Of a stretch of 10,274 nucleotides of DNA, positions 3 to 10,274 are shown piece after piece; position 1 is the first letter of the stretch, and every line of letters begins with the position of its first letter. This DNA comes from an uncultured bacterium (GTDB lineage: Bacteria > SAR324 > NAC60-12), in assembly GCA_964010765.1 (NCBI GenBank), contig CAXGMD010000099.1, positions 1 through 10,274 of the forward strand, written 5' to 3'. The notes under the pieces were generated by a model. The model made no database searches and had not been told where the DNA came from. It saw only the letters and a program-made list of their open reading frames with translations. Position numbers and translations under genes: made by a program.

Positions 3-974
3 GAGTATCTTGAGCTTTCTCTGGACTACATGAACTGGCTGATATACGGCAGTGGGGCGTTTATCTTTGCATTCGTGATCAACAGCGGGCTCAATGCTCA
101 GGGGGACACAAAGTCGTATCGGAACGCCTTAATCTGTGGATTTTTTGCCAATGTGATTCTGGATCCACTATTTTTGTTTGGCTGGGGTCCTTTTCCTGCT
201 CTTGGACTAGAAGGAATCGCGATTTCAACAGTCCTCATTGAATTGGGAGTCGTTACTTATTTATCCGTCAAACTACTCTCATCTAAATTGGGAGGAAATC
301 TAAGTACTCGAAAGTTTTCTCTACAAGTAAAAATTATTGTTGATTTGGTTAAGCAGGGATTTCCAGCCAGTTTAAGTATCTTATTTATCTCATTAAATTT
401 TTATGTGATTTTACATTTTATTTCTGATTTTGGGAAAACTTCAGTGGCAGCTTATGGGGTTTCTACCAGAATTGTTCAGGTAATGCTTTTACCATCTATA
501 GGTCTGAACACGGCAGCTTTATCACTAACTGGATTTAACTTTGGCGCTAATAACCTTGAACGAATCAATCAGACCTGGAGAACTTGCTTCAGCTATTCAT
601 TACTGCTGACAGCTTTCGGAGGAATCCTCCTGTTCTGCTTTCCAGAATTTTTGCTGAAACTGTTTACCGACAGTGAAGAGATCATCGAAGTAGGCCCGAC
701 TCTGCTGCGAGTTGAGGCGGTATTACTCACGGCATACACCACCATTTTTCTAGGAACTTCCGTCTTGCAGGGTCTCAAGAAGCCGATGTTTGGCATGATA
801 CTCAGTATCTACAGGCTCATTGTTGCACCTGTCATCTTTTTTTGGATCTTCTCAGATTTGCTAGGTTACAGCTTGAATGGCATCTGGGCAGGGATCTGCC
901 TCACAACAGCGAGTGGAGCGCTGATCACTTGGTTCTTCCTCAGAAAGACACTGATAAATTTTTCTAATTCATAA
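3..974 (+). CDS. MATE family efflux transporter, 5'-truncated by the window edge
   Basis: The frame is open from base 3 (EYLELSLDY-MNWL...), so the ATG at 30 is probably internal. The protein has multiple hydrophobic TM segments and MATE signatures: NAQGDTK, NVILDPLFLFGWGPFPALGLEGIAIST, GFPAS, VAAYGV, GFNFGA and GIWAG. TAA stop at 972-974. Confidence 0.93.
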   Translation, partial: EYLELSLDYMNWLIYGSGAFIFAFVINSGLNAQGDTKSYRNALICGFFANVILDPLFLFGWGPFPALGLEGIAISTVLIELGVVTYLSVKLLSSKLGGNLSTRKFSLQVKIIVDLVKQGFPASLSILFISLNFYVILHFISDFGKTSVAAYGVSTRIVQVMLLPSIGLNTAALSLTGFNFGANNLERINQTWRTCFSYSLLLTAFGGILLFCFPEFLLKLFTDSEEIIEVGPTLLRVEAVLLTAYTTIFLGTSVLQGLKKPMFGMILSIYRLIVAPVIFFWIFSDLLGYSLNGIWAGICLTTASGALITWFFLRKTLINFSNS

Positions 975-1059
975 ATCAATAAAGATTCCTTTTACCTATT
1001 TTTTAATTGTCTCTCATTCTTATGGAAATCAAGTATTGAAAATATGAATTTTATATTTT

Positions 1060-2934
1060 TTAGTTGATCTGACCAGGAATCATGTCTTCTGCTTCATTAG
1101 TCTCAACTCTAGCTTGTAAGGCAGCTTCATTATTTACTAACAGACGAATTTTATTCTCAATTTCAGCATTGTTGAATTTAAGGTTAGCTAGTTCTTTACT
1201 CATTTCTGCTCTGCCATGCAAATCTATGAATGATTTCACTTCTTCATTTCTTTCCTGCTCTCGGTAAAGTGCTCCTAAACAAGCAATTCTTAATATCCAG
1301 GTACTAGGAGTAAAGTGCTTACTTAGAGGCTTAAATTCTAAACATTTCTCATAGTTTTCAGCTGCATAATTCGCCCACACTAAAGTATCCATAATACTTT
1401 GTCCTAAGGGATCAAGCTCTATCGCCTTATTTAAAATACTGAGCCCTTGTTCTAAGTCACCATTGAAAACTAAAGATTGACCATATTTATGTAGCATTCC
1501 AGGACTGTTGGGGTTGAGTTCGTATCCTTTTCTTCCATATCTTTCGGCCTCATCATATTTTTCAAAATGCATATTTACGCCACATAGCATGCGGTGACAA
1601 TCCCAATCTTGATTCGTTAGTTCATACGCTTGCCCCAAAAGACTGTGGATATTATCCCAAATTTGATCATTGGAAAGTGGAAACAAATTCTCATCGCTTA
1701 GTCCGCCAGCCAAAGTGCAGCATTTCTCAGCATAAGCTCTTCCATTTTCAGGATCATATTCAATAGCTTTGGTAAACATCTCAACTGCAATATTTTGATC
1801 TTCCTTATTCTTCTTTTTTTTGTGGAATTTTCCTCTTAGTAAAAACTCGTAAGAGTTGAGATCTTCCGTAGGCTTTCGCTTTGCCCTATTCAAGCTAGTC
1901 ACTTCAATTTCATTTAAAACTGAGTCAGAAATTTTTCTAACTAGCTCATCCTGAATCTCGAACACATCATCCATTATTTTGTCAAATCTTGCAGACCATA
2001 ATGATCCATGGCCTGTTGGATCAGTCAATTCAGCATTTACTCGTACTTTTTTTCCTGCGGATCTAATACTTCCTGTAACGAAATAACTTAAATTATACTT
2101 TTCAGTTAACTCCTTTATCTCAAAATTCTTTTCTTTCAAATCAAATGTAGTTTCTCTAGACATCACCTCTATAGAATTGATCATTGATAATTCTGTAATT
2201 ATATCGTCGACAATCCCATCGACTAAAAATTCATTGTCTTCTTGGTTATTTAAGTTTCGAAATGGGAAAAGCATGATTCTAGGTTTAAAATTTTCAGGCC
2301 GCTGATTAGGTAAGATAGAAGCAGCTTCAACCTTTCTGTTTTCGCTGACACTGCTTGATTTCGTCAGTGAAGATTTTTCTGCATCCGGATCGAGAATGAC
2401 ATCATAAGTTTGAACTGGGTTATCAATATTTTTTACCTCTCTAGGGCCAACATTTTCAAAAATCAGCTCGAGCTTGCGGTGTACCTCGTCATGAAACTTA
2501 CCCGAAATACAAATCCCACCAGGTTTCGCAAGTGGTTCAAGACGGGCAGCAACGTTTACTCCATCACCAAATAGATTGTCTCCCTCAACTATCACGTCCC
2601 CAAGATTCAGTCCAACTCGAAACTGCATTTGGTTTTCAGGGGTTACTGTTAAGTTGCGATCACGCAAATTTCTTTGAAACTCCACTGCTGCAAGGATTGC
2701 GTCAACAGGGCTTGCAAATTCAGCAATGATCGAGTCTCCCGCTGTCCCAAAAACTCTCCCATGGTGCTCCCTAATTGCTCCGTCAGTAATCTCACGACAT
2801 GCCTTGAGATTACTCAAGGTACGGTCCTCATTTTCACCCATCATTTTGCTGAAACCAACTACATCTGCGGCCAGAATAGCTGCTAATTTTCTTTTAGGAC
2901 GACGATCAAAAAGTGGAAATTCACTATTTGTCAT
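1060..2934 (-). CDS. Class III adenylate/guanylate cyclase domain fused to a TolB-like/FlgO-type domain and TPR repeats (624 aa)
   Basis: N-terminal cyclase motifs RKLAAILAADVVGFS, TAGDS, FRVGLNLGDV and FGDGVNVAARLE...GGICISG. The central segment LFPFRNL...FLVDGIVDDIITELS...GSIRSAGKKVRVNAELTD...LWSARFD...DVFEIQDE is typical of the TolB-like domain. C-terminal TPR helices (AIEYDPENGRAYA, YELNPNSP, AIELDP). GAGG RBS upstream of the ATG at 2934. Confidence 0.93.
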   Translation of the reverse strand: MTNSEFPLFDRRPKRKLAAILAADVVGFSKMMGENEDRTLSNLKACREITDGAIREHHGRVFGTAGDSIIAEFASPVDAILAAVEFQRNLRDRNLTVTPENQMQFRVGLNLGDVIVEGDNLFGDGVNVAARLEPLAKPGGICISGKFHDEVHRKLELIFENVGPREVKNIDNPVQTYDVILDPDAEKSSLTKSSSVSENRKVEAASILPNQRPENFKPRIMLFPFRNLNNQEDNEFLVDGIVDDIITELSMINSIEVMSRETTFDLKEKNFEIKELTEKYNLSYFVTGSIRSAGKKVRVNAELTDPTGHGSLWSARFDKIMDDVFEIQDELVRKISDSVLNEIEVTSLNRAKRKPTEDLNSYEFLLRGKFHKKKKNKEDQNIAVEMFTKAIEYDPENGRAYAEKCCTLAGGLSDENLFPLSNDQIWDNIHSLLGQAYELTNQDWDCHRMLCGVNMHFEKYDEAERYGRKGYELNPNSPGMLHKYGQSLVFNGDLEQGLSILNKAIELDPLGQSIMDTLVWANYAAENYEKCLEFKPLSKHFTPSTWILRIACLGALYREQERNEEVKSFIDLHGRAEMSKELANLKFNNAEIENKIRLLVNNEAALQARVETNEAEDMIPGQIN

Positions 2935-3137
2935 TTTGCCTCTTGTTAAGATTGATATGTTTTAATCTTTTGGTGGATTCAATGATTTTCCTGCTCATAA
3001 AGCTCAAATTCTTAAGATGTAATCAAAGAATAATTTTTAGAAAAAACTATTCAGTATTTATTAGTAGATCAACAAATAAATTCAGCCACTTTTTAACAAG
3101 ATTTACCCTGTGGAAAGTTTCCCACAGACCAGACCTA

Positions 3138-3569
3138 CTAGGCAGTGATTTTCTGAACATCTTTTTTTGTCACACCGCGCTTTTCCAAATGATACAAGCC
3201 AGCATTCGTAGGTTGAAAACCGCAACTCTCATAAAACCGTTTAAAAGGCGGCTTGTAATCAACATGAACCCATTCTATCCCAAGCTCGCTAGCCAGTGAT
3301 ACCGCTTCGCGCACCAACTGCTTCCCAATTCCACACCTCTGATGATCCGGATGTACAGTAGTATCCATGAGAAACGCATGTTTTCCGCCGTCCCAAGCCA
3401 CATTTACAAAACCAATCAGGTGTCCGTCGACATAAGCACTGATATAGGTAAGACTTTGACGAAGCACAGGCTGAAAGTCCCTAGGAGAGTGGTTTGACCA
3501 AGCAGCCCTGAAAAGCCTATTCAGGTCTTCATTGCCAGGGTTATCTTTTGAGCGAAGCAAAAGACTCAA
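3138..3569 (-). CDS. GNAT family N-acetyltransferase
   Basis: LIGFVNVAWDGGKHAFLMDTTVHPDHQRCGIGKQLV contains the acetyl-CoA binding motif A (QxxGxG). WVHVDY...FYESCGF corresponds to motif B. TTG start preceded by GAGGAG (3573-3578). Confidence 0.9.
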   Translation of the reverse strand: MSLLLRSKDNPGNEDLNRLFRAAWSNHSPRDFQPVLRQSLTYISAYVDGHLIGFVNVAWDGGKHAFLMDTTVHPDHQRCGIGKQLVREAVSLASELGIEWVHVDYKPPFKRFYESCGFQPTNAGLYHLEKRGVTKKDVQKITA

Positions 3570-3612
3570 TTTCTCCTCTTTTTTTGACTACCAACGGACT
3601 TGAAGTAGCTGA

Positions 3613-4671
3613 TCAAATGATCTCCAAATAATCCTTGTCGGGCAACTTGGGAAACTGCTCACTTGGAAGAGTTTGGTACCAGTAGGCTACTGAGGCAATG
3701 TCATCCTGCAGCGGCAGGTAGCGCCGATCATTGCGCCAACCAAGAGCCTGTATGGTTACAAGTAGATCTTCGTCAAAACGAATGGGATCCGTGATGTGCC
3801 AGCGGTACATACCAAAGCGAGTTTGAGAACGATACACTCCATCAGGCCGCAGGATCTGGGGTAGGCCGGCATAAGCAGTAGAGAATTCTTGGTACTGCTT
3901 CGTTTCCTTGTTTTCAAAATTATAGGATCCACAAAAGTAATCCTCAGTCCCTGTTCCACAAATGGAGGGAAACTCTTCGTCGCCATCAAGGAAAAATTTA
4001 ATCTCGCCTTCACCCCACCAGCCTGAGTTGTTGACTCCCCAAGCCAGGTAAGTACCTACATAGCGTCCCTTCCCCTGCACTCCGTCCAGAATCGTGTAGT
4101 CGGTTTTGTAGGGCAACGGATTGACCCGGCGAAACTGTGCATGGAAATATCCAGCCTGTGGACTGATCTCACCGAGAGAGTAGTTGATCTGATAGTACAG
4201 CGTCATCTCCTCGTCCCCGATGTTTTCCAGCGTGATCCGACAACGCTTGGCAAAAGGCATCGGCCAGTAGCAGTTAAATGCACTCCCAGGATTCACACAA
4301 ACCGCCAGTGAGGAAACCGGCGCAAACTTGCCCCAGCCACAAGCGAAAAAGTCTCCGACTGGACACTCCACAGCTGGATACTCCTGATCATCCCAATAAA
4401 AACGCAGGATGCTGAAGCGCCAATTGCCTGTGGGAGTCATCCAAATCTGCTCGATCGTCCCCGGACCCTCAATCACAGCCAACTCAAAGATCTGCCCACT
4501 TTGGATCTTGACCGAAGGAGATATTTTCCAACCTGGACCAAGATCCCTCGCACAGTCTTCACCCGTACCCGTGGTGGCTCGTCCACCCTGGCCCTTATCA
4601 CCAGTAAAGTTCTCTGGACTGATGGATCTAGATATTGAATTATCGAGAACACTTAGATTATTCAAATTCAT
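3613..4671 (-). CDS. Glycoside hydrolase family 172 (DUF2961) protein, putative alpha-D-arabinofuranosidase/alpha-D-fructofuranosidase
   Basis: Family motifs RSISPENFTGDKG, GPGTIEQIWMT, ILRFYWD, VECPVGDFF, FNCYWPMPF, YFHAQFRR, WWGEGEIKFFLDGD...GTGTEDYF (two candidate catalytic Glu), YRWHITDPIRF and DDIASVAYWYQ. No signal peptide is evident. Confidence 0.9.
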   Translation of the reverse strand: MNLNNLSVLDNSISRSISPENFTGDKGQGGRATTGTGEDCARDLGPGWKISPSVKIQSGQIFELAVIEGPGTIEQIWMTPTGNWRFSILRFYWDDQEYPAVECPVGDFFACGWGKFAPVSSLAVCVNPGSAFNCYWPMPFAKRCRITLENIGDEEMTLYYQINYSLGEISPQAGYFHAQFRRVNPLPYKTDYTILDGVQGKGRYVGTYLAWGVNNSGWWGEGEIKFFLDGDEEFPSICGTGTEDYFCGSYNFENKETKQYQEFSTAYAGLPQILRPDGVYRSQTRFGMYRWHITDPIRFDEDLLVTIQALGWRNDRRYLPLQDDIASVAYWYQTLPSEQFPKLPDKDYLEII

Positions 4672-4736
4672 AAATACCCTTTGTCTGATTTATGCTCCTC
4701 ACACTCGCATCTTACATCCGGCAGAAACCGCTGTTG

Positions 4737-5522
4737 CTACTCTCCAGTGATGTCTTTGATCATCCGGAAATTCCCAGCGGTCAACCCGCCATCGACATTC
4801 AAGGAAGCTCCGTTGACGAAGCTCGCTTCATCCGCACTGAGGAAAGCGACCGCAGCCGCGATGTCTTCAGGTCGACCAACTCGACCAACTGGATACCAAC
4901 CCTTAACTAACTCAAAAACCTCAGGTCTTGAATCCTTACGGGTTTGCCAAACCGGTGTTTCGATTGTTCCTGGTAACACTACATTAGCACGAATGCCTTT
5001 TGGACCATATTCAATTGCCAAAGTCTGTGTGAAGGAGATCACCCCAGCCTTGGCTGCGCTGTAAGCAGGATTCCCGAAAGACTGGGCACCATTGACCGAA
5101 GAAATGTTGGTAATCGCACCTTTGCCCTGGGCTTCCATATCTGGCAGGAAGAGACGGGTCAACATGTAATGGCCGGTCAGATTCAGGGCAATATCCTGGT
5201 TCCAGTTTTCCAACGTAGTCATCGCGTAGTTTTCAGCAAAGGCTGCCCCCGCATTATTGACCAGCACGTCAATGGTACCAAAGAACAGGGTCGCTTCCTT
5301 ATGAACTTTCTCAACGTCAGCTTCGCTGGTGATATCAGCCTGAACGAAGAGCACCTTGGTGTTCTGTAGCTTCAGCTCTTGCTCGACGGACTGACCTTCC
5401 TTGAGATCCTTGTCAATCAGGATGATGTTGGCTCCTTCAGCGGCCAATCTCAGACAGATGGCATGGCCAATCCCAGAACCTCCTCCACTGATAAGCACGT
5501 TCTTTCCTGCATAACGCTGCAT
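4737..5522 (-). CDS. Classical SDR family NAD(P)-dependent oxidoreductase
   Basis: SGGGSGIG Rossmann motif, acidic residue at the end of beta2 (LIDKD, suggesting NAD preference), NNAG, NISS, catalytic YSAAK, GIRANVVLPG and GASLNVDGG. Purine-rich RBS (GGAAGG) upstream. Confidence 0.95.
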   Translation of the reverse strand: MQRYAGKNVLISGGGSGIGHAICLRLAAEGANIILIDKDLKEGQSVEQELKLQNTKVLFVQADITSEADVEKVHKEATLFFGTIDVLVNNAGAAFAENYAMTTLENWNQDIALNLTGHYMLTRLFLPDMEAQGKGAITNISSVNGAQSFGNPAYSAAKAGVISFTQTLAIEYGPKGIRANVVLPGTIETPVWQTRKDSRPEVFELVKGWYPVGRVGRPEDIAAAVAFLSADEASFVNGASLNVDGGLTAGNFRMIKDITGE

Positions 5523-5570
5523 ACCTTCCCTTTCTTATCGACAGGTGAATCAATATTTCATCGAGATGAG

Positions 5571-6746
5571 TCAATCCAACAAAGCAAAGGCTTCCTGAGC
5601 CCAGAGCAGGTTGGGTTCTGGTAGAAAACCATAATTGTAGAAGCTGATCCCACACGGTTGAAGCGTCTTGAGTTGTTCGACCGCGCTGAGTAGTTGGGTC
5701 TTGCTGTCCAAATCGGGGGGAGCAGGGCGCAGAATGAAGCTCAGGGGAACCTCATCGCCCACACGGCGGCGCACATCCCAGGAGTCCATGAAAATTTCGT
5801 CGGCTCCATTCTGATACGCACAGGAATCAACCCCATCAAAAAGCTCTGATAGTTTCGTCAATCCAGTTCCCTCCACCCAGCAACCTGCTGTGGGGCGTTG
5901 TACTGTGGGGATCAGATTCAGGCGTACATGCTTGGGCAACACATCTCGAACCGACTTGATCAACTCAGCAACAATCTGCTCCTGAGCTCGGAGATAGGCC
6001 ATCAGATCAGGCTCCTGAATCAAGTCTGCGAGGAACCAGTGCATCGCCATCGACTCCTTCGGGTAGACCCCAGAAGCAAAGAACTGATTCAGACGCCCCA
6101 CGACCCAATTCTGCAGCCTGTCAGCATTCACCCCGAAGGAAATCGCCTTACGCTTGGTATCCGCTGAGAAGCAAAGCGCCAACAGGGCCTGTGCCTGAAA
6201 GTCCAGGGGTACAAAACCAAACTCATGGTGATAGCCATGCCAGAAAGGCAGGTATCCCGGAGTCTCCAGGGTAATGCACTCCACGCTCTCGATCGATGCG
6301 AGGTCCTGACACAGCGCCCGCACATAGTGCTGCACTTCGTCATTGGCCGGGCAGAGATTGTAGATGTAGGGATCCCCAAAAGCATTCCTGACACAAAGTT
6401 CCGGATGCTCCAATCCCTGCGGACTGTTATGGGTACAGACGGTCCAGGCCTTGAGTCGCAAATCCTTGTTGTACTTTGGCCAATCCCGAAAGAAATCGTA
6501 CTGATCCAAGACCGGATTTCGCTTGGGCTGAATACTTCTGTAGAGTTGCCGATTCGGTTCAAAATAGACCGTCCCATCCACAGGAAAGTAGATTTTCTGC
6601 TTGGCCCGGGGACGCGTAAACTTACCAGCGTGATAGCTGGAGGCCAGACAAACCGTATTGGCTCCAAGTTCTTGAATCTTCGCCAGCGCTGACTTGGGGC
6701 CTTCCTCTGCCAGATCCCAAGCATAAACAAAAAAACCTTTCTCCAT
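5571..6746 (-). CDS. Uncharacterised protein, probable (beta/alpha)8 glycoside-hydrolase-like fold (391 aa)
   Basis: Long ORF with a strong AAGGAG RBS (6753-6758), starting 14 nt after the upstream gene's stop. It shows an alternating beta/alpha pattern with motifs YAWDL, LGANTVCLASSYH, WTVCTHN, NAFGD..YNLCPANDEVQHY, ITLE, HGYHHE and FYNYG. The gene call is solid but the fold assignment is inference. Confidence 0.75.
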   Translation of the reverse strand: MEKGFFVYAWDLAEEGPKSALAKIQELGANTVCLASSYHAGKFTRPRAKQKIYFPVDGTVYFEPNRQLYRSIQPKRNPVLDQYDFFRDWPKYNKDLRLKAWTVCTHNSPQGLEHPELCVRNAFGDPYIYNLCPANDEVQHYVRALCQDLASIESVECITLETPGYLPFWHGYHHEFGFVPLDFQAQALLALCFSADTKRKAISFGVNADRLQNWVVGRLNQFFASGVYPKESMAMHWFLADLIQEPDLMAYLRAQEQIVAELIKSVRDVLPKHVRLNLIPTVQRPTAGCWVEGTGLTKLSELFDGVDSCAYQNGADEIFMDSWDVRRRVGDEVPLSFILRPAPPDLDSKTQLLSAVEQLKTLQPCGISFYNYGFLPEPNLLWAQEAFALLD

Positions 6747-6760
6747 CCTCGTCTCCTTGG

Positions 6761-7906
6761 TTATCTCCAGATTTTTCCTTTGACCACCATTTTTTCTGCG
6801 ATCATACGCTTGTCACCAAGCAACAGTTCCTTCTTGACGTCATAGTACTCAAAGCGTCCCTCCTCAATCCTGAGCACTGCTGCATCTCCTGGGCTGCCCA
6901 CCTGCAAGTTACCCAGATCTGGTCGTTGAATTGCCTCTGCAGGACGAGTGGTGGACGCCCGAATCACGTCCATCAAAGGCATGCCAAGGCAAAGGAACTT
7001 GGACATGGTGACCAAGATGTCAAAGGCAGGACCGTCGACACTCATCAGGTGTACATCACTGCTGATCGTGTCCGGCAGGAAATCCTGCTCCAGCATCTTT
7101 CGGCTGACCTGGAAAGAGAGTGATCCCCCACCGTGACCAAGGTCAAAGATGATTCCCCGCTCTCGAGCCTGAGTGACCGCTTCCCGAATGCTACCGTTGC
7201 CGTAGAGTGGTGCATTGGGGAATGGTCGAAAACAGTGAGTCAGCACGTCCCCAGGACGTAGGTAGTTCAAAACATCATCCCGATCCGGTGGTGGGAAATC
7301 CACATGGGTCATCAATGGCAGACCTGTCTCTTCACCAACCTCCCGGGCGATTTGGAGTGGCGTCATACCAGCGCTGCCACTTGCGTAGCGTCCAATCCGC
7401 ACCTTGATCCCAACGATGCTTTCCCGGTACTTCTCAATGGCTTCCAAGCACTCATCAGTATCGAGTAAACGGATATCTTCGCACTCCGGAAAGAGGTTCG
7501 CTTTCTTCTTGCTGAAACCACAGATACCCGCAAAAGAGATGTTGATGAATCCGAGGATTCGAAGATCGGTGTTGTCAGCGATGAAGTGTTTTAGTCCGCC
7601 AAAATTTCCAGCCCCAGCACTGCCCGCATCAATGAAGGTAGTCGTCGCGCTGCGACCGGCAATGTCCTCGGCGTTTACCCCAAGACCCGTGGCACCCCAG
7701 TAGACATGAGTGTGGAGATCGATCAACCCTGGACACACGATGCAGCCCGAAACATCCTGAACCTCCTTGGCCTCAACCGGACTGTTGCTGTCCAGAATCG
7801 CAGAGATCTTGCCGTCTGTGAAAGCAACATCCTTGTGTGCATCCAAGCCCACACTGGGGTCCATCACTCGTCCCCCTTTGAGGAGGAGATCTACTTTGCC
7901 TGTCAT
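6761..7906 (-). CDS. Amidohydrolase/deacetylase family metallohydrolase (COG3964-like, often mis-annotated as dihydroorotase)
   Basis: N-terminal beta-sandwich LLKGGRVMDP, then PGLIDLHTH (HxH), TTFIDAGSAG, GIKVR (carboxylatable Lys), MTHVD, LRPGDVLTHCF, FDLGHGGGS and PDTISSDVH (catalytic Asp). It lacks the dihydroorotase HxHxR arginine. Confidence 0.9.
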   Translation of the reverse strand: MTGKVDLLLKGGRVMDPSVGLDAHKDVAFTDGKISAILDSNSPVEAKEVQDVSGCIVCPGLIDLHTHVYWGATGLGVNAEDIAGRSATTTFIDAGSAGAGNFGGLKHFIADNTDLRILGFINISFAGICGFSKKKANLFPECEDIRLLDTDECLEAIEKYRESIVGIKVRIGRYASGSAGMTPLQIAREVGEETGLPLMTHVDFPPPDRDDVLNYLRPGDVLTHCFRPFPNAPLYGNGSIREAVTQARERGIIFDLGHGGGSLSFQVSRKMLEQDFLPDTISSDVHLMSVDGPAFDILVTMSKFLCLGMPLMDVIRASTTRPAEAIQRPDLGNLQVGSPGDAAVLRIEEGRFEYYDVKKELLLGDKRMIAEKMVVKGKIWR

Positions 7907-7924
7907 TCGTTTTCTCGCTTGAAA

Positions 7925-8127
7925 TTAACCTTCAAATTCCACGGCAATCACTGCACAGCAATTGCCCTTCACCACTTTTCCAATCATTTGTAACCCGTAG
8001 AGAATCCCATCTGTTTCGTAGCACATTACCCTTGGTGGTTCAAAAGGGTTGGCCAAACTGTTTGCCGTCTCTCTCCAGATCTACCCGTGAGGAAGGCCGA
8101 GGAGCGACGAGTTGACTGAGTGTTCAT
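7925..8127 (-). pseudogene. Internally deleted, frameshifted remnant of a succinylglutamate desuccinylase/aspartoacylase (AstE/AspA, DoeB-like) deacylase gene
   Basis: GAGGAA RBS and ATG (8127) give MNTQSTRRSSAFLT. After one extra G (8084-8086 run) the reading continues VDLERDGKQFG, which resembles the family N-terminus. Another frame from 8056 gives LANPFEPPRVMCYETDGILYGLQMIGKVVKGNCCAVIAVEFEG-stop (7925), which resembles the family C-terminus. The stop lies 18 nt upstream of the amidohydrolase ATG. The family was recognised from memory, not from a search. Confidence 0.7.
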
Positions 8128-8356
8128 TTGGTTCCTCAAAAATTGACAAGAATTCAAATCTTGGTTTTGCGCCTCATCTTCTCGAATGTGCGTACCATTT
8201 TCTTTATCCGCTGCGTTTGCAAGATTTTTGGTTCGATTCTTTACACAATTTTGTGCTGCCTCTGCATCATTCTTTTTTCCTGAGCTGAAGATAAATCTGA
8301 AAATTGCAAAGAAGATAACAGATGGCTATTGGAAAAAAGTACTGAATTCGTCTAGA

Positions 8357-8375
8357 AATGATTACAAAAATCATT
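8357..8375. promoter_or_regulatory. Candidate operator: perfect 7-5-7 inverted repeat AATGATT-acaaa-AATCATT in the divergent intergenic region
   Basis: The palindrome is read directly from the sequence and lies between two divergent gene sets. The region is AT-rich, so chance occurrence is possible. Confidence 0.35.
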
Positions 8376-8523
8376 GTGCAGTCGAACGCATCTTAATCGT
8401 TCGGTTCACCCCGAGAAAGGGATGATCCATCCTGACGATTTTTCAGGTCTTTGTTGTTTGTTGAAGGCCACCAAAATACTTGTTTTAGCCGTCTTTCCAA
8501 AAGTATTCAGGAAAAGGAGCAGA

Positions 8524-9717
8524 ATGAAGATCACGGATCTAAAGTGCGCATTGATTGGCAAGAATCCAATCGTTCGGATTGTTACTGATGAAGGGATTTC
8601 AGGCTACGGAGAGGCTGAACAGTACAAGCCATATTTGAAGCCATGGGTTCTCCAATTTCGAGAAGCACTGATTGGAGAAGATCCCACTGATGTAGAGCGC
8701 TGCATGCTCAAGATCCGACAACGTGGTTCGTTCAAACCCTATGGGGCGCCAGTCTCGATCATTGAGCATGCGCTCTGGGATATTGCGGGAAAAGCGGCAG
8801 GAGTGCCTGTCTATAAATTGCTCGGTGGCAAAGTTCGGGATCAGGTGCGGACCTACAACGGCTCGATTCGTCGACCGATGGGGGAATGGACTCCGGAGGC
8901 AATGGCGGAGAACTGTCGGTGGATGAAATCCCTGCCCGAAGGCTTTGATATCGTCAAGCAGGGAATCGCCTTCCACTCACCAATGAAGAAGCTCGATCGT
9001 TTCTTCTATGGACAGGCAGCGCAAAGTCCCTTCCACGGACAAATGGATCAGGGGACCTTGACGGAACGCGGGCTCGCACTACTAGTCGATTGCGTAGCTG
9101 CCATGAAAGAAGTGCTAGGGGATGAAGTAGGACTCGCCCTAGACTGTGGTCCCGGATGGATGCCAGCAGATGCGCTACGCTTTGCCCGAGCTGTTGAGCC
9201 CTACAACCTGATGTGGCTGGAGGACATGCTCACCGGGGATTACGTGCCCTATGTGAATGCCGATGTCTATCGAGACCTGACCCACTCCACTTCCACCCCA
9301 ATCCACACAGGTGAACAGATCTATCTGCGCCAGAACTTCAAGGATCTGATCGAAAGACATGCAGTCAATGTCGTGGGACCCGATCCAGCAGATGTTGGTG
9401 GAATCGCTGAGTTGAAGTGGATTGCTGAATACGCCTACCTACATGGTATCCTGATGGCACCTCATGGGACAGGCAACGGCGTCTTAGGACTGGCAGCACT
9501 GATTCAAGTCTGTGCCACCTTACCCGCCAACTTCATCGCCTTTGAATACCCAACAGGACATGACCCCTGGTGGTATGAGATCGTAGAAGGCCTGCCCAAT
9601 CCCATCGTAAAGAACTCCATGATTGACGTGATCGAGCGACCGGGCATAGGTGTTGACCTGATCCCAGAAGCAGCAGCACAATATCTGGCTCCAGAAGATG
9701 CAGGCTTCTTCGATTGA
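8524..9717 (+). CDS. Mandelate racemase/muconate lactonizing enzyme family protein (enolase superfamily), probable acid-sugar dehydratase (397 aa)
   Basis: Start reassigned to the ATG at 8524 (AGGAG at 8515-8519, MKITDLK N-terminus). Motifs: VRIVTDEGISGYGE, ALWDIAGKAAGVPVYKLLGGKVRD, Mg ligands LD(CG)/WLE(D)/TGE(Q), GPD...APH Asp-His dyad, FEY and RPGIGVDL. Confidence 0.93.
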   Translation: MKITDLKCALIGKNPIVRIVTDEGISGYGEAEQYKPYLKPWVLQFREALIGEDPTDVERCMLKIRQRGSFKPYGAPVSIIEHALWDIAGKAAGVPVYKLLGGKVRDQVRTYNGSIRRPMGEWTPEAMAENCRWMKSLPEGFDIVKQGIAFHSPMKKLDRFFYGQAAQSPFHGQMDQGTLTERGLALLVDCVAAMKEVLGDEVGLALDCGPGWMPADALRFARAVEPYNLMWLEDMLTGDYVPYVNADVYRDLTHSTSTPIHTGEQIYLRQNFKDLIERHAVNVVGPDPADVGGIAELKWIAEYAYLHGILMAPHGTGNGVLGLAALIQVCATLPANFIAFEYPTGHDPWWYEIVEGLPNPIVKNSMIDVIERPGIGVDLIPEAAAQYLAPEDAGFFD

Positions 9718-9946
9718 GTGCTGAAGAGCGGGTTGCTGTTTGTTCGGAAAGAACTGTGCTTGGGAAACTTGCAAATCCAGATTCTTTTCTCTAGCTTCCG
9801 AATTCCAAGTCATTTATCAGAATGAAGGTCAACGCCTCCTGTAGCTTTTTCAATGTCACTGTTCACAGGAGACCAAGAGAATACCAAGGAATGTCCGGTG
9901 CTCCCTGCCTTTGACCTGTTCCAACAACTCTCAGCCAGGATTTCCA

Positions 9947-10274
9947 ATGCCCAACTGGAGTGATGTCGACACCCCTGCCGTATTGATCGATCTGGAAAAA
10001 GTCTCTGCCAACCTACTGCGCGTTCAAGGTTATGCGGACGCCAACGGTCTGACACTGCGACCCCACATCAAAACCCACAAGCTCCACCGCTTCGCAAATT
10101 TGCAGGTCGAATTCGGAGCCTGTGGAATCACTTGTCAAAAGGTGGGAGAAGCCGAGAGCATGGCAGCGGGGGGAATCCAGGACATCCTGATCACCTACAA
10201 TCTGGTTGGAGAAGCCAAACTGGAGCGACTGGCCAAGTTACACGAGAGCATCCGGGTGAGCGTGGTCACTGATA
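9947..10274 (+). CDS. Fold-type III PLP-dependent enzyme, D-threonine aldolase/D-serine dehydratase (DSD1)-like, 3'-truncated by the window edge
   Basis: Not in the ORF track because there is no stop in the window. Manual translation: MPNWSDVDTPAVLIDLEKVSANLLRVQGYADANGLTLRPHIKTHKLHRFANLQVEFGACGITCQKVGEAESMAAGGIQDILITYNLVGEAKLERL... It contains TPAVLID, the RPHxKTHK PLP-lysine motif and GITCQKxGEAE. AGGA RBS at 9937-9940. Confidence 0.92.
   Translation, partial: MPNWSDVDTPAVLIDLEKVSANLLRVQGYADANGLTLRPHIKTHKLHRFANLQVEFGACGITCQKVGEAESMAAGGIQDILITYNLVGEAKLERLAKLHESIRVSVVTD

Follow-up and report, generated by a model that had tools for sequence, protein, structure and literature searches.

A recurrent amidohydrolase, TIM-barrel and dehydrogenase gene module in a SAR324 catabolic island, and its proposed likeness to the Ong pathway

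The closest described system to the locus reported here, a two-operon catabolic island on a 10,274-nt stretch of DNA from a SAR324-type genome (contig CAXGMD010000099.1; the whole stretch is called the window), is the Ong pathway of Pseudoalteromonas prydzensis (Jiang et al., 2022; PMC9537276). Its substrate is N-acetyl-D-glucosaminate (GlcNAc1A) obtained from chitin cleaved by lytic polysaccharide monooxygenases. The D-aminoacylase-like enzyme OngB deacetylates GlcNAc1A, OngC, from a separate clade of fold-type III pyridoxal phosphate (PLP) enzymes, converts the resulting GlcN1A into 2-keto-3-deoxygluconate (KDG), and the kinase KdgK then phosphorylates the keto-deoxy acid. A RidA protein (OngD) and an RpiR repressor (OngR) are encoded in the same ong operon. 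The structure of OngB has been solved (Wang et al., 2025; PMC12017989), and a haloarchaeal route via glucosaminate has been predicted, but not tested (PMC12343721). A sequence-only reading of the window had proposed an undescribed non-phosphorylative catabolic pathway. The Ong pathway of 2022 (PMC9537276) already pairs de-N-acetylation with a subsequent fold-III PLP deamination, so the core chemistry had been described before. The novelty lies in the parts: a COG3964 enzyme in the presumed deacetylase role, an unannotated barrel family of 2,226 clusters, and a possible kinase-free ending.

The conserved unit in the window is a recurrent module of three genes on the reverse strand. These encode a COG3964/PRK09237-type amidohydrolase ('deacetylase family metallohydrolase', 381 aa, apparently intact; 6761-7906), a 391-aa TIM-barrel protein of an unannotated family, here called UNK (5571-6746), and a classical short-chain dehydrogenase/reductase (SDR) of 261 aa (4737-5522). 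We give a probability of roughly 0.4 to the reading that this module is the front end of an Ong-like variant for an N-acetylated amino sugar or its glycoside, with deacetylation by the COG3964 enzyme, deamination by a PLP enzyme with a His/Cys metal site, and possibly a kinase-free aldolase ending. The module would start from an N-acetylated amino sugar, either free or as a small glycoside. UNK might split the glycosidic bond in the cytoplasm, and the SDR might oxidise C1 of the released N-acetylhexosamine to give an N-acetyl-aminoaldonate, although the roles of both proteins in the chain are guesses. The COG3964 enzyme would take off the acetyl group, and the His/Cys-type fold-III PLP enzyme would eliminate ammonia to yield a 2-keto-3-deoxy-aldonate. 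An RraA-like aldolase may then split the keto-deoxy acid without phosphorylation in this lineage, and a GH172 glycosidase and three dehydratase genes would be add-ons for other glycosides and sugar acids. Observed directly are the identities of the genes, the pseudogene, the conserved gene adjacency, the exchange of COG3964 for a D-aminoacylase-like enzyme and the dehydratase-type metal motif, whereas we infer every substrate, the sequence of reactions and an ending without a kinase. Should the Ong-like reading hold, degradation of oxidised amino sugars would extend beyond chitinolytic Gammaproteobacteria to SAR324, Geminicoccaceae and Rhizobiaceae-type bacteria, with different parts; otherwise the locus amounts to a commonplace mosaic of genes for sugar acids and D-amino acids.

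The likeness to Ong lies in an amidohydrolase-superfamily N-deacetylase that would act before any phosphorylation, followed by fold-type III PLP elimination of ammonia to a 2-keto-3-deoxy acid. The parts themselves differ. The Ong deacetylase is the D-aminoacylase-like OngB, whereas that of the window is of the COG3964/PRK09237 type; nothing in the ong cluster corresponds to UNK or the SDR; and in place of the Ong kinase the window's lineage has an RraA-like aldolase. The other Ong components, namely KdgK, RidA, RpiR, the GH20 enzyme OngA, the SSS transporter and the TonB receptors, were found neither in the window nor among the scanned open reading frames (ORFs) of sister metagenome-assembled genomes, although the accessory families (RpiR, RidA and D-aminoacylase-like) adjoin UNK-SDR in related loci. 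The D-glucosaminate (Dga) route of Salmonella is phosphorylative and employs a phosphotransferase system; its lyase, which is SelA-like and of fold type I, works on the 6-phosphate. The island also resembles the Weimberg/Dahms and non-phosphorylative Entner-Doudoroff routes in that enolase- and UxuA-family dehydratases accompany a pyruvate-type aldolase and the scanned island ORFs include no kinase, but this aldolase is RraA/HMG-CHA-like and not of the dihydrodipicolinate synthase or 2-keto-3-deoxy-6-phosphogluconate type, and all of the dehydratases stay below equivalog cut-offs.

The comparative analysis was anchored on UNK. A set of 28 UNK homologues was aligned, and loci from other genomes, numbered L001 onwards, were taken as the best 80 of 537 relatives in a species-representative genome collection, of which 79 were fetched. 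Genes were counted by tblastn of reference proteins against these loci. Hits had E<=1e-10, covered 60% or more of the query, reached a minimum identity set for each family at 25-40%, and lay within 8 kb of UNK unless stated. Lineages were defined as single-linkage groups at 70% or higher UNK identity, which gave 24 groups. Antisense ORFs sometimes displaced the SDR in the gene calls of high-GC loci, and gene-order maps were used only where tblastn agreed.

With this approach, an SDR orthologue (at least 40% identity) was found no more than 3 kb downstream of UNK in 72 of the 79 loci and 23 of the 24 lineages, directly adjacent in 65 loci. Enough downstream sequence was present in 73 loci, and the SDR is absent from L008, L026 and L067. 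The SDR is the conserved partner of UNK. The COG3964 amidohydrolase gene stands immediately upstream of UNK in 22/79 loci and 9/24 lineages (72 loci assessable). In other loci a D-aminoacylase/OngB-like amidohydrolase replaces it (10/79 loci, 4/24 lineages), and the two never occur together. Fold-III PLP genes of two subfamilies were counted in 10 loci from six lineages, L005 being included at a distance of 9.4 kb. Near UNK, 20 loci have sugar-type ABC binding proteins and eight have NMT1-type binding proteins; GFO/IDH/MocA genes occur in 14, RpiR in eight and RidA in six. Four loci hold pfkB kinase genes, which were rejected as pathway kinases; they are 4.8-6.8 kb away in a housekeeping context, beside SecA and cobalamin adenosyltransferase genes.

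The gene arrangement is beyond chance for part of the set only, that is, for the SDR and the amidohydrolase with UNK. The sequence-only reading had named absence of co-occurrence in other genomes as the result that would refute it. The amidohydrolase-UNK-SDR module does recur, and the fold-III PLP gene keeps it company in the 10 loci mentioned, but GH172 and the enolase-family gene do not. Together with the second MR protein (MR2), RraA-like and UxuA-like genes described below, these two were seen in one lineage of 24, the window's own (L001, L002, L003 and L007), in genomes 86-95% identical in DNA to the window. Independent co-occurrence thus gives no link between them and the module, and, because their co-occurrence is confined to this lineage, they are taken as lineage-specific additions. 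As for the transporter, kinase and RidA genes that the same reading had pointed to as possible neighbours, ABC binding proteins and RidA were found at the counts above, and the kinase genes counted were the distant pfkB genes.

Several individual loci appear to tie the module to amino sugars and to the ongCRBD protein families by their predicted gene content. L078 has UNK, SDR, RpiR, a D-aminoacylase-like gene and a PLP gene packed on one strand, with RidA nearby, and its amidohydrolase scores 523 bits against the Alcaligenes D-aminoacylase 1M7J and 483 bits against PpOngB (9KB1). In L069 and L063, from cultured Aquibaculum, RpiR and ABC transporter genes are followed by GFO, COG3964 and UNK, and the SDR lies just downstream by tblastn. 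Next come a 114-aa ORF and the PLP gene, which share a strand in L069, with a RidA-like match past the PLP gene; the 114-aa ORF (L069 12971-13315) is conserved and has no Pfam or NCBIfam hit. L010 holds COG3964, UNK and SDR, then a 433-aa PLP enzyme gene about 2 kb downstream of UNK. L005, a SAR324 relative whose UNK is 67% identical, has the operon COG3964-UNK-nagB-nagA-like-SDR, the nagB and nagA-like genes being inserted between UNK and SDR at 5729-7632. Its NagB exceeds the model cut-off (TIGR00502, 301 bits vs 237) and its NagA-like protein falls below (191 bits vs 226). Amidohydro_2 lactonase-type, GFO and sugar ABC transporter genes converge on this operon, and beyond them is a 433-aa PLP enzyme 51% identical to that of L010. 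The presence of nagB and a nagA-like gene inside the L005 operon suggests that the module points to amino sugars.

Other contexts were also recorded. In most of L028-L053, which form one alphaproteobacterial lineage, UNK-SDR follows ATP-synthase F0 genes and precedes GFA, PhyH and hydantoinase A/B genes (about 3000-18000), a context that is probably lineage synteny rather than function. L008 and L009 (4500-16700) carry UNK without the amidohydrolase, among genes for an aldehyde dehydrogenase, a family III CoA-transferase, a thioesterase, a GBBH/TauD dioxygenase and another MR protein.

UNK has no Pfam hit at E<=0.01 and no NCBIfam hit. Against PDB sequences, neither the single sequence nor a profile gave anything meaningful, the profile reaching Cwp19 only at E 1.3. 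AlphaFold2 predicts a confident (beta/alpha) TIM barrel (pLDDT 92.6, pTM 0.92). A Foldseek search of the PDB with this model returned the C-terminal GH153 domain of PgaB at the top, then the GHL10 protein Cwp19, with GH42, GH35 and GH14 next (E 6e-10 to 1e-6, TM 0.5-0.64, identity 8-13%). The matches to PgaB GH153 and Cwp19 are the best (E 6e-10 to 1e-8, probability 1.00), yet their TM scores are only 0.55-0.64 at 9-13% identity, and UNK is cytoplasmic and single-domain. Both of these nearest folds bind or cleave GlcNAc (N-acetylglucosamine) polymers or peptidoglycan. A precomputed PF02638 (GHL10) match was present in 12 of the 120 listed UNK homologues, and an ESM Atlas search gave unnamed clusters only, with GHL10/DUF4015 as distant named neighbours. 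In the 28 aligned sequences, D11, D57, D125, E161, E175 and D345 are always acidic, as is position 307 (D/E), and E161 and D/E307 lie on predicted strands. These residues are compatible with a glycosidase but do not prove one. UNK is a predicted cytoplasmic glycoside-hydrolase-like TIM barrel, distantly similar to glycoside hydrolases.

The UNK family is large, with 2,226 clusters at 50% identity (E<=1e-3), 769 of them at E<=1e-30. A word-indexed search gave 896 hits, and wherever the source supplies a name it is 'hypothetical protein' or 'uncharacterized protein'. No published function was found for UNK, and no longer fused forms were found, which is weak evidence. Were UNK assigned a function, thousands of genes would gain an annotation, and a glycoside-hydrolase family might be added.

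The window amidohydrolase matches NF006689 at 413 bits (cut-off 371) and is a full-length relative of PDB 2OGJ (E 3.4e-61), which we take to be Atu3266. It lies outside the EF_0837 sub-family (TIGR03583, 265.9 bits vs a cut-off of 432.15). H65, H67, K168, H201, H224 and several Asp residues are invariant in seven orthologues; H65/H67, K168, H201 and H224 are presumably the superfamily metal ligands (HxH, Lys, His, His, Asp). The window enzyme resembles Atu3266/Oant2987 (2OGJ) in its full-length homology. These two COG3964 members, reportedly studied by Ornelas and colleagues in 2013, are said to have weak activity on N-acetyl-D-Ser/Thr. To our knowledge, COG3964 enzymes have had a solved structure but only surrogate substrates, none of them physiological, for more than 10 years; the conserved operon context described here offers a concrete substrate class for them. 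Literature searches for a COG3964 gene in a context of UNK, SDR and PLP dehydratase, or as the deacetylase of this route, found none and returned only citations.

A second, dead deacylase had also been noted, and the comparison with sister genomes bears it out as a real gene remnant, though one of a DoeB-like (AstE/AspA family) N-acetyl-amino-acid deacetylase and not a second COG3964 gene. The remnant lies at 7928-8157 on the reverse strand. A tblastn search with the intact 349-aa protein of L007 showed that the window keeps only residues 1-36, frameshifted, and 305-349, in 230 bp. The intact L007 protein has the Pfam domain AstE_AspA_cat, and its best NCBIfam match is DoeB (TIGR02994, 272 bits, below the cut-off of 402.7); DoeB is the deacetylase of the ectoine pathway. 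L007 and L003 hold about 807 bp extra between the amidohydrolase and the first enolase-superfamily gene (MR1), which in L007 completes the 349-aa gene. Relative to them, the window and L001 have in common an internal deletion of 807 bp with a 9-bp imperfect microhomology at the junction, which accounts for the loss of the gene. Copies are found at 6802-7031 in L001, at 7773-8816 in L003, where the gene is split across three frames, and at 5347-6396 in L007, where it is intact. The DoeB-like gene is decaying in this population.

The L003 amidohydrolase (8841-9986) has 81% protein identity to that of the window, while the flanking UNK, SDR, GH172, MR1 and PLP proteins have 92-96%, and GC falls to 0.45 at this gene. 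The lower identity and the GC dip suggest that the segment recombined from a more distant lineage.

The SDR matches the Pfam family adh_short_C2 at 202 bits. Among 243 NCBIfam SDR models that match it, the glucose 1-dehydrogenase subfamily model NF005559 is passed at 221.8 bits (cut-off 215), and PRK07074 scores 276.6 bits, below its cut-off of 361. In the PDB the uncharacterised SDR 5TT0 (4.8e-56) is ahead of Bacillus glucose 1-dehydrogenase structures (E about 1e-43).

The right operon opens on the forward strand with MR1, an enolase-superfamily protein of the MR/MLE type (397 aa; 8524-9717; Pfam MR_MLE_C 138.7 bits, MR_MLE_N 44.7 bits). The listed ORF starts at 8374, and the likely true start is the ATG at 8524 because the orthologues in L001, L003 and L007, the only loci in which MR1 stands beside the module, are 397 aa. 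Its best NCBIfam match, galactonate dehydratase, is at 165.7 bits, below the cut-off of 311, no dehydratase of known specificity was matched, and its best PDB match, 2QQ6, is without assigned function. From these family matches MR1 is probably an acid-sugar dehydratase. Between MR1 and the PLP gene there is a spacer of unusual length for an operon (226 bp at 9718-9943 in the window; 230 bp at 3555-3784 in L007), in which no Rfam family and no convincing terminator were found.

The PLP gene follows on the forward strand at 9944-10273, where its reading frame meets the window end after the N-terminal 110 residues. The fragment passes Ala_racemase_N at 24.3 bits (cut-off 24.1) and scores 91.8 bits against the BhcC model, below 690; it is 96-99% identical to full-length 353-aa orthologues in L007 and L003. 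Full-length relatives in L054 and L010 have both Ala_racemase_N and D-ser_dehydrat domains. The L007 orthologue aligns end to end with the D-threonine aldolase 4V15 (1.5e-51), ahead of BhcC 6QKB (4.2e-43) and D-threo-3-hydroxyaspartate dehydratase 3WQC (1.4e-34), and the full-length orthologue reaches only 206.7 bits of the 690 required by the BhcC equivalog.

In overall sequence 4V15 is nearer to the PLP enzyme of this lineage than 3WQC is, but the D-serine dehydratase 3ANU and the D-threo-3-hydroxyaspartate dehydratase 3WQC belong to the same two-domain family and have its His-x-Cys metal site. His-x-Cys is present in all four aligned PLP proteins, covering both subfamilies; in the alignment with solved relatives, three aldolases (D-Thr aldolases and BhcC) have His-x-Asp and the D-threo-3-hydroxyaspartate dehydratase His-x-Cys. 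The position of His193 in 4V15 is Pro in the SAR324 protein. The aldolase AxDTA binds Mn via His347 and Asp349, whereas the metal site of chicken D-serine dehydratase is His and Cys, and the aldolase base His193 is absent from the dehydratase (PMC4401734). The His-x-Cys site and the Pro at the His193 position favour an ammonia-eliminating dehydratase rather than an aldolase, and the RidA partners in other lineages fit this. PLP-dependent deamination or aldol cleavage had both been entertained from the sequence alone; deamination is the one favoured, the aldolase-type His/Asp site and His193 not being present.

Beyond the window edge, the right operon continues in L001, L003 and L007 with MR2, RraA-like and UxuA-like genes, so that its order, completed from the sister genomes, is MR1-fold-III PLP-MR2-RraA-like aldolase-UxuA-like dehydratase. 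The RraA/HMG-CHA-aldolase-like protein passes NF006093 (266.8 bits vs 208), and the UxuA-like mannonate dehydratase passes NF003027 (225 bits vs 191). After the UxuA-like gene there is a conserved SAR324 ORF of 139 aa (L001 676-1095) with no Pfam or NCBIfam hit.

At the far end of the left operon is the gene for a GH172 (DUF2961) glycoside hydrolase of 352 aa (3613-4671, reverse strand), a terminal, lineage-specific addition that stands beside the module only in L002, L003 and L007 among the 79 loci. It covers all 235 profile positions (1-235) of PF11175 at 325 bits, and residues 2-351 align with the exo-alpha-D-arabinofuranosidase ExoMA1 (PDB 8IC8; E 1.5e-138). Its WWGEG and GTGTED motifs align with E270 and E291-D292 of alphaFFase1 (7V1V), in which E270 is the acid/base and E291 the nucleophile, with D292 adjacent (PMC8605356). 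Trp298 of alphaFFase1 is Tyr at the equivalent position in the window protein. No signal peptide is present, the sequence beginning straight at the conserved N-terminus, and ExoMA1 is likewise intracellular and without a signal sequence (PMC10509167). The two are alike in their full-length alignment, in lacking a signal peptide and in keeping the catalytic Glu/Glu/Asp, and the window protein is probably an intracellular exo-alpha-D-arabinofuranosidase or alpha-D-fructofuranosidase. The Microbacterium ExoMA1 locus, however, has a GH183 endo-arabinanase, GH116, an isomerase and a kinase, none of which is in the window context, and the host here is a marine SAR324-type bacterium.

A number of points weigh against the Ong-like reading. 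No enzyme activity is known for UNK, for the window SDR or for the window's COG3964 clade, and the 'glucose 1-dehydrogenase' match of the SDR is to a broad subfamily model with a margin of only 6.8 bits. The window PLP enzyme is a putative counterpart of OngC, on the grounds of its family and its dehydratase-type metal site, and for the D-aminoacylase-like proteins a true D-aminoacylase is a slightly better match than PpOngB. No importer or other transporter, RidA, RpiR or other regulator was found among the ORFs scanned in the window and sister genomes. UNK has no deacylase within 8 kb in 47/79 loci, and a PLP gene is nearby in only 7/22 of the COG3964 loci. The seven triad loci that were scanned sit among unrelated genes, L010 and L059 with their ABC-transporter genes excepted; 44 neighbours from these loci and L011, whose contig ends just past UNK, were scanned with Pfam and gave mostly unrelated genes (nitrile hydratase, HpaB, RecQ, two-component and WD40/STAND proteins) and no further pathway clue. 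In L008 and L009 UNK sits with CoA-transferase and TauD/GBBH-like genes, a context that is not one of amino sugars, and NagA-like and NagB proteins act on 6-phosphates, which speaks for a phosphorylative fate in L005. Finally, many loci are mutually related or truncated, and gene calls in the high-GC loci are heuristic.

The main rival, which we hold to be somewhat unlikely, is that two or three unrelated modules are neighbours here. The left side (amidohydrolase, UNK and SDR, plus GH172) would trim a glycoside or amino sugar and feed phosphorylative NagA/NagB-type metabolism encoded elsewhere, the right operon would separately degrade sugar acids and a beta-hydroxy-D-amino acid (D-serine, D-threonine or D-threo-3-hydroxyaspartate), and neither side would supply a substrate to the other. 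Such a separation would explain why MR1, MR2 and the RraA-like and UxuA-like genes accompany UNK in no lineage but the window's, why 15 of the 22 COG3964-UNK-SDR triads lack a PLP gene and have mostly unrelated scanned neighbours, and why the PLP gene is flanked by two MR genes instead of belonging to the left operon. Also in keeping with it are the nagB and nagA-like genes within the L005 operon and the action of the PLP enzyme's closest solved relatives on small D-amino acids. It has to contend with the recurrence of fold-III PLP genes of two subfamilies by the module in six of the 24 lineages, closely spaced with it on one strand in L078, L069 and L010, and with the RidA and RpiR genes that accompany them. 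GC is moreover uniform over the two-operon island, from the UxuA-like gene to GH172, at 0.45-0.53 against 0.34-0.44 in the flanks (window 3500-10274; L003 1900-13100), which is consistent with one unit and with its acquisition as such.

A bolder form of the amino-sugar proposal, improbable in our estimate, would give UNK a cytoplasmic glycoside-hydrolase family of its own, with amino-sugar disaccharides such as chitobionic acid or some other dimer that contains GlcNAc as substrates. With the SDR and COG3964 enzymes it would form a phosphorylation-free front end that oxidises N-acetylhexosamine within the cell and leads through the PLP dehydratase and an RraA-type aldolase to pyruvate. If this were true, COG3964 would gain a physiological substrate, and marine and soil bacteria would have a second widespread (~2,200 clusters) route for amino-sugar carbon and nitrogen.

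An unlikely rival is the catabolism of N-acyl-D-amino acids, in which the COG3964 enzyme, and formerly the DoeB-like one too, would deacylate N-acetyl-D-serine, N-acetyl-D-threonine or similar compounds and the PLP dehydratase would give the keto acid. The deacylase that takes the place of COG3964 in other loci resembles a true D-aminoacylase no less than OngB, D-Ser dehydratases belong to the PLP family, and RidA occurs with the PLP gene in six loci. The Ong paper takes N-acetyl-D-serine catabolism as its model and gives D-Ser and D-Thr as further compounds deaminated by OngC (PMC9537276). The weak N-acetyl-D-Ser/Thr activity reported for COG3964 members also fits. Such a route gives no role to the universally linked UNK and SDR, though, and leaves unexplained the nagB and nagA-like genes of L005, the sugar-type ABC binding proteins (20 loci), the RpiR (SIS-domain) regulators and the GFO/IDH/MocA genes.

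Very unlikely is an oxidative, kinase-free D-arabinose route of the Weimberg/Dahms kind (GH172 freeing D-arabinose, the SDR giving D-arabinonate, an MR dehydratase giving 2-keto-3-deoxy-pentonate and the RraA-like protein cleaving it), which can draw on the ExoMA1 alignment and kept catalytic motifs of GH172, on sub-threshold scores of MR1 and MR2 against archaeal arabinonate dehydratase (87 and 120 bits vs a cut-off of 650) and on the finding of neither kinase nor isomerase in the island ORFs scanned, but which has against it an SDR tied to UNK in 72 loci, nearly all without GH172 and MR genes, a GH172 gene that is a terminal addition of one lineage, better matches of MR1/MR2 to galactonate and mannonate dehydratase models, and two deacetylases and a PLP enzyme left without a role.

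The locus as a whole is best explained as a compositionally distinct, mosaic catabolic island of two divergent operons in a SAR324-type genome. The window has nine substantial ORFs, all of which were scanned with Pfam and NCBIfam, and all seven features named in the sequence-only reading were located. Only six of its seven proteins are visible as ORFs; the comparison with sister genomes accounts for the seventh, the dead deacylase. The left operon runs from the dead DoeB-like deacetylase through the COG3964 amidohydrolase, UNK and SDR to GH172, and the last four genes are separated, in this order, by gaps of 14, 48 and 65 bp. The divergent arrangement around a common intergenic region holds, but since the deacylase remnant occupies 7928-8157, the presumed promoter region is 8158-8523 and not the whole gap of 7907-8523. 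The claim that the window has no kinase also stands, as no kinase domain was found by Pfam or NCBIfam in any of the nine ORFs, nor in the scanned neighbouring ORFs of L001, L002, L003 and L007, but a 10-kb window without a kinase does not show a non-phosphorylative route. No Rfam families were found in the window, and its promoter-like and terminator-like matches were no commoner than in shuffled sequence.

The sister records L001, L002, L003 and L007 are metagenome-assembled genomes of SAR324 or 'Deltaproteobacteria'; the window is collinear with L001 at 95% DNA identity, and L007, L003 and L002 are at 86-92%. To the left of the island, and outside the finding, are a MATE transporter fragment (3-974, forward strand), an adenylate/guanylate-cyclase-TPR protein (1060-2934, reverse) and a GNAT acetyltransferase (3138-3569, reverse). 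The last two lie in a 2.7-kb stretch of low GC (0.36-0.42) at 941-3608, which is an insertion relative to L007. At the insertion site, the GH172 and MATE genes of L007 are only ~120 bp apart, and L002 and L003 have a GFO/IDH/MocA gene there; this site at the island edge is strain-variable.

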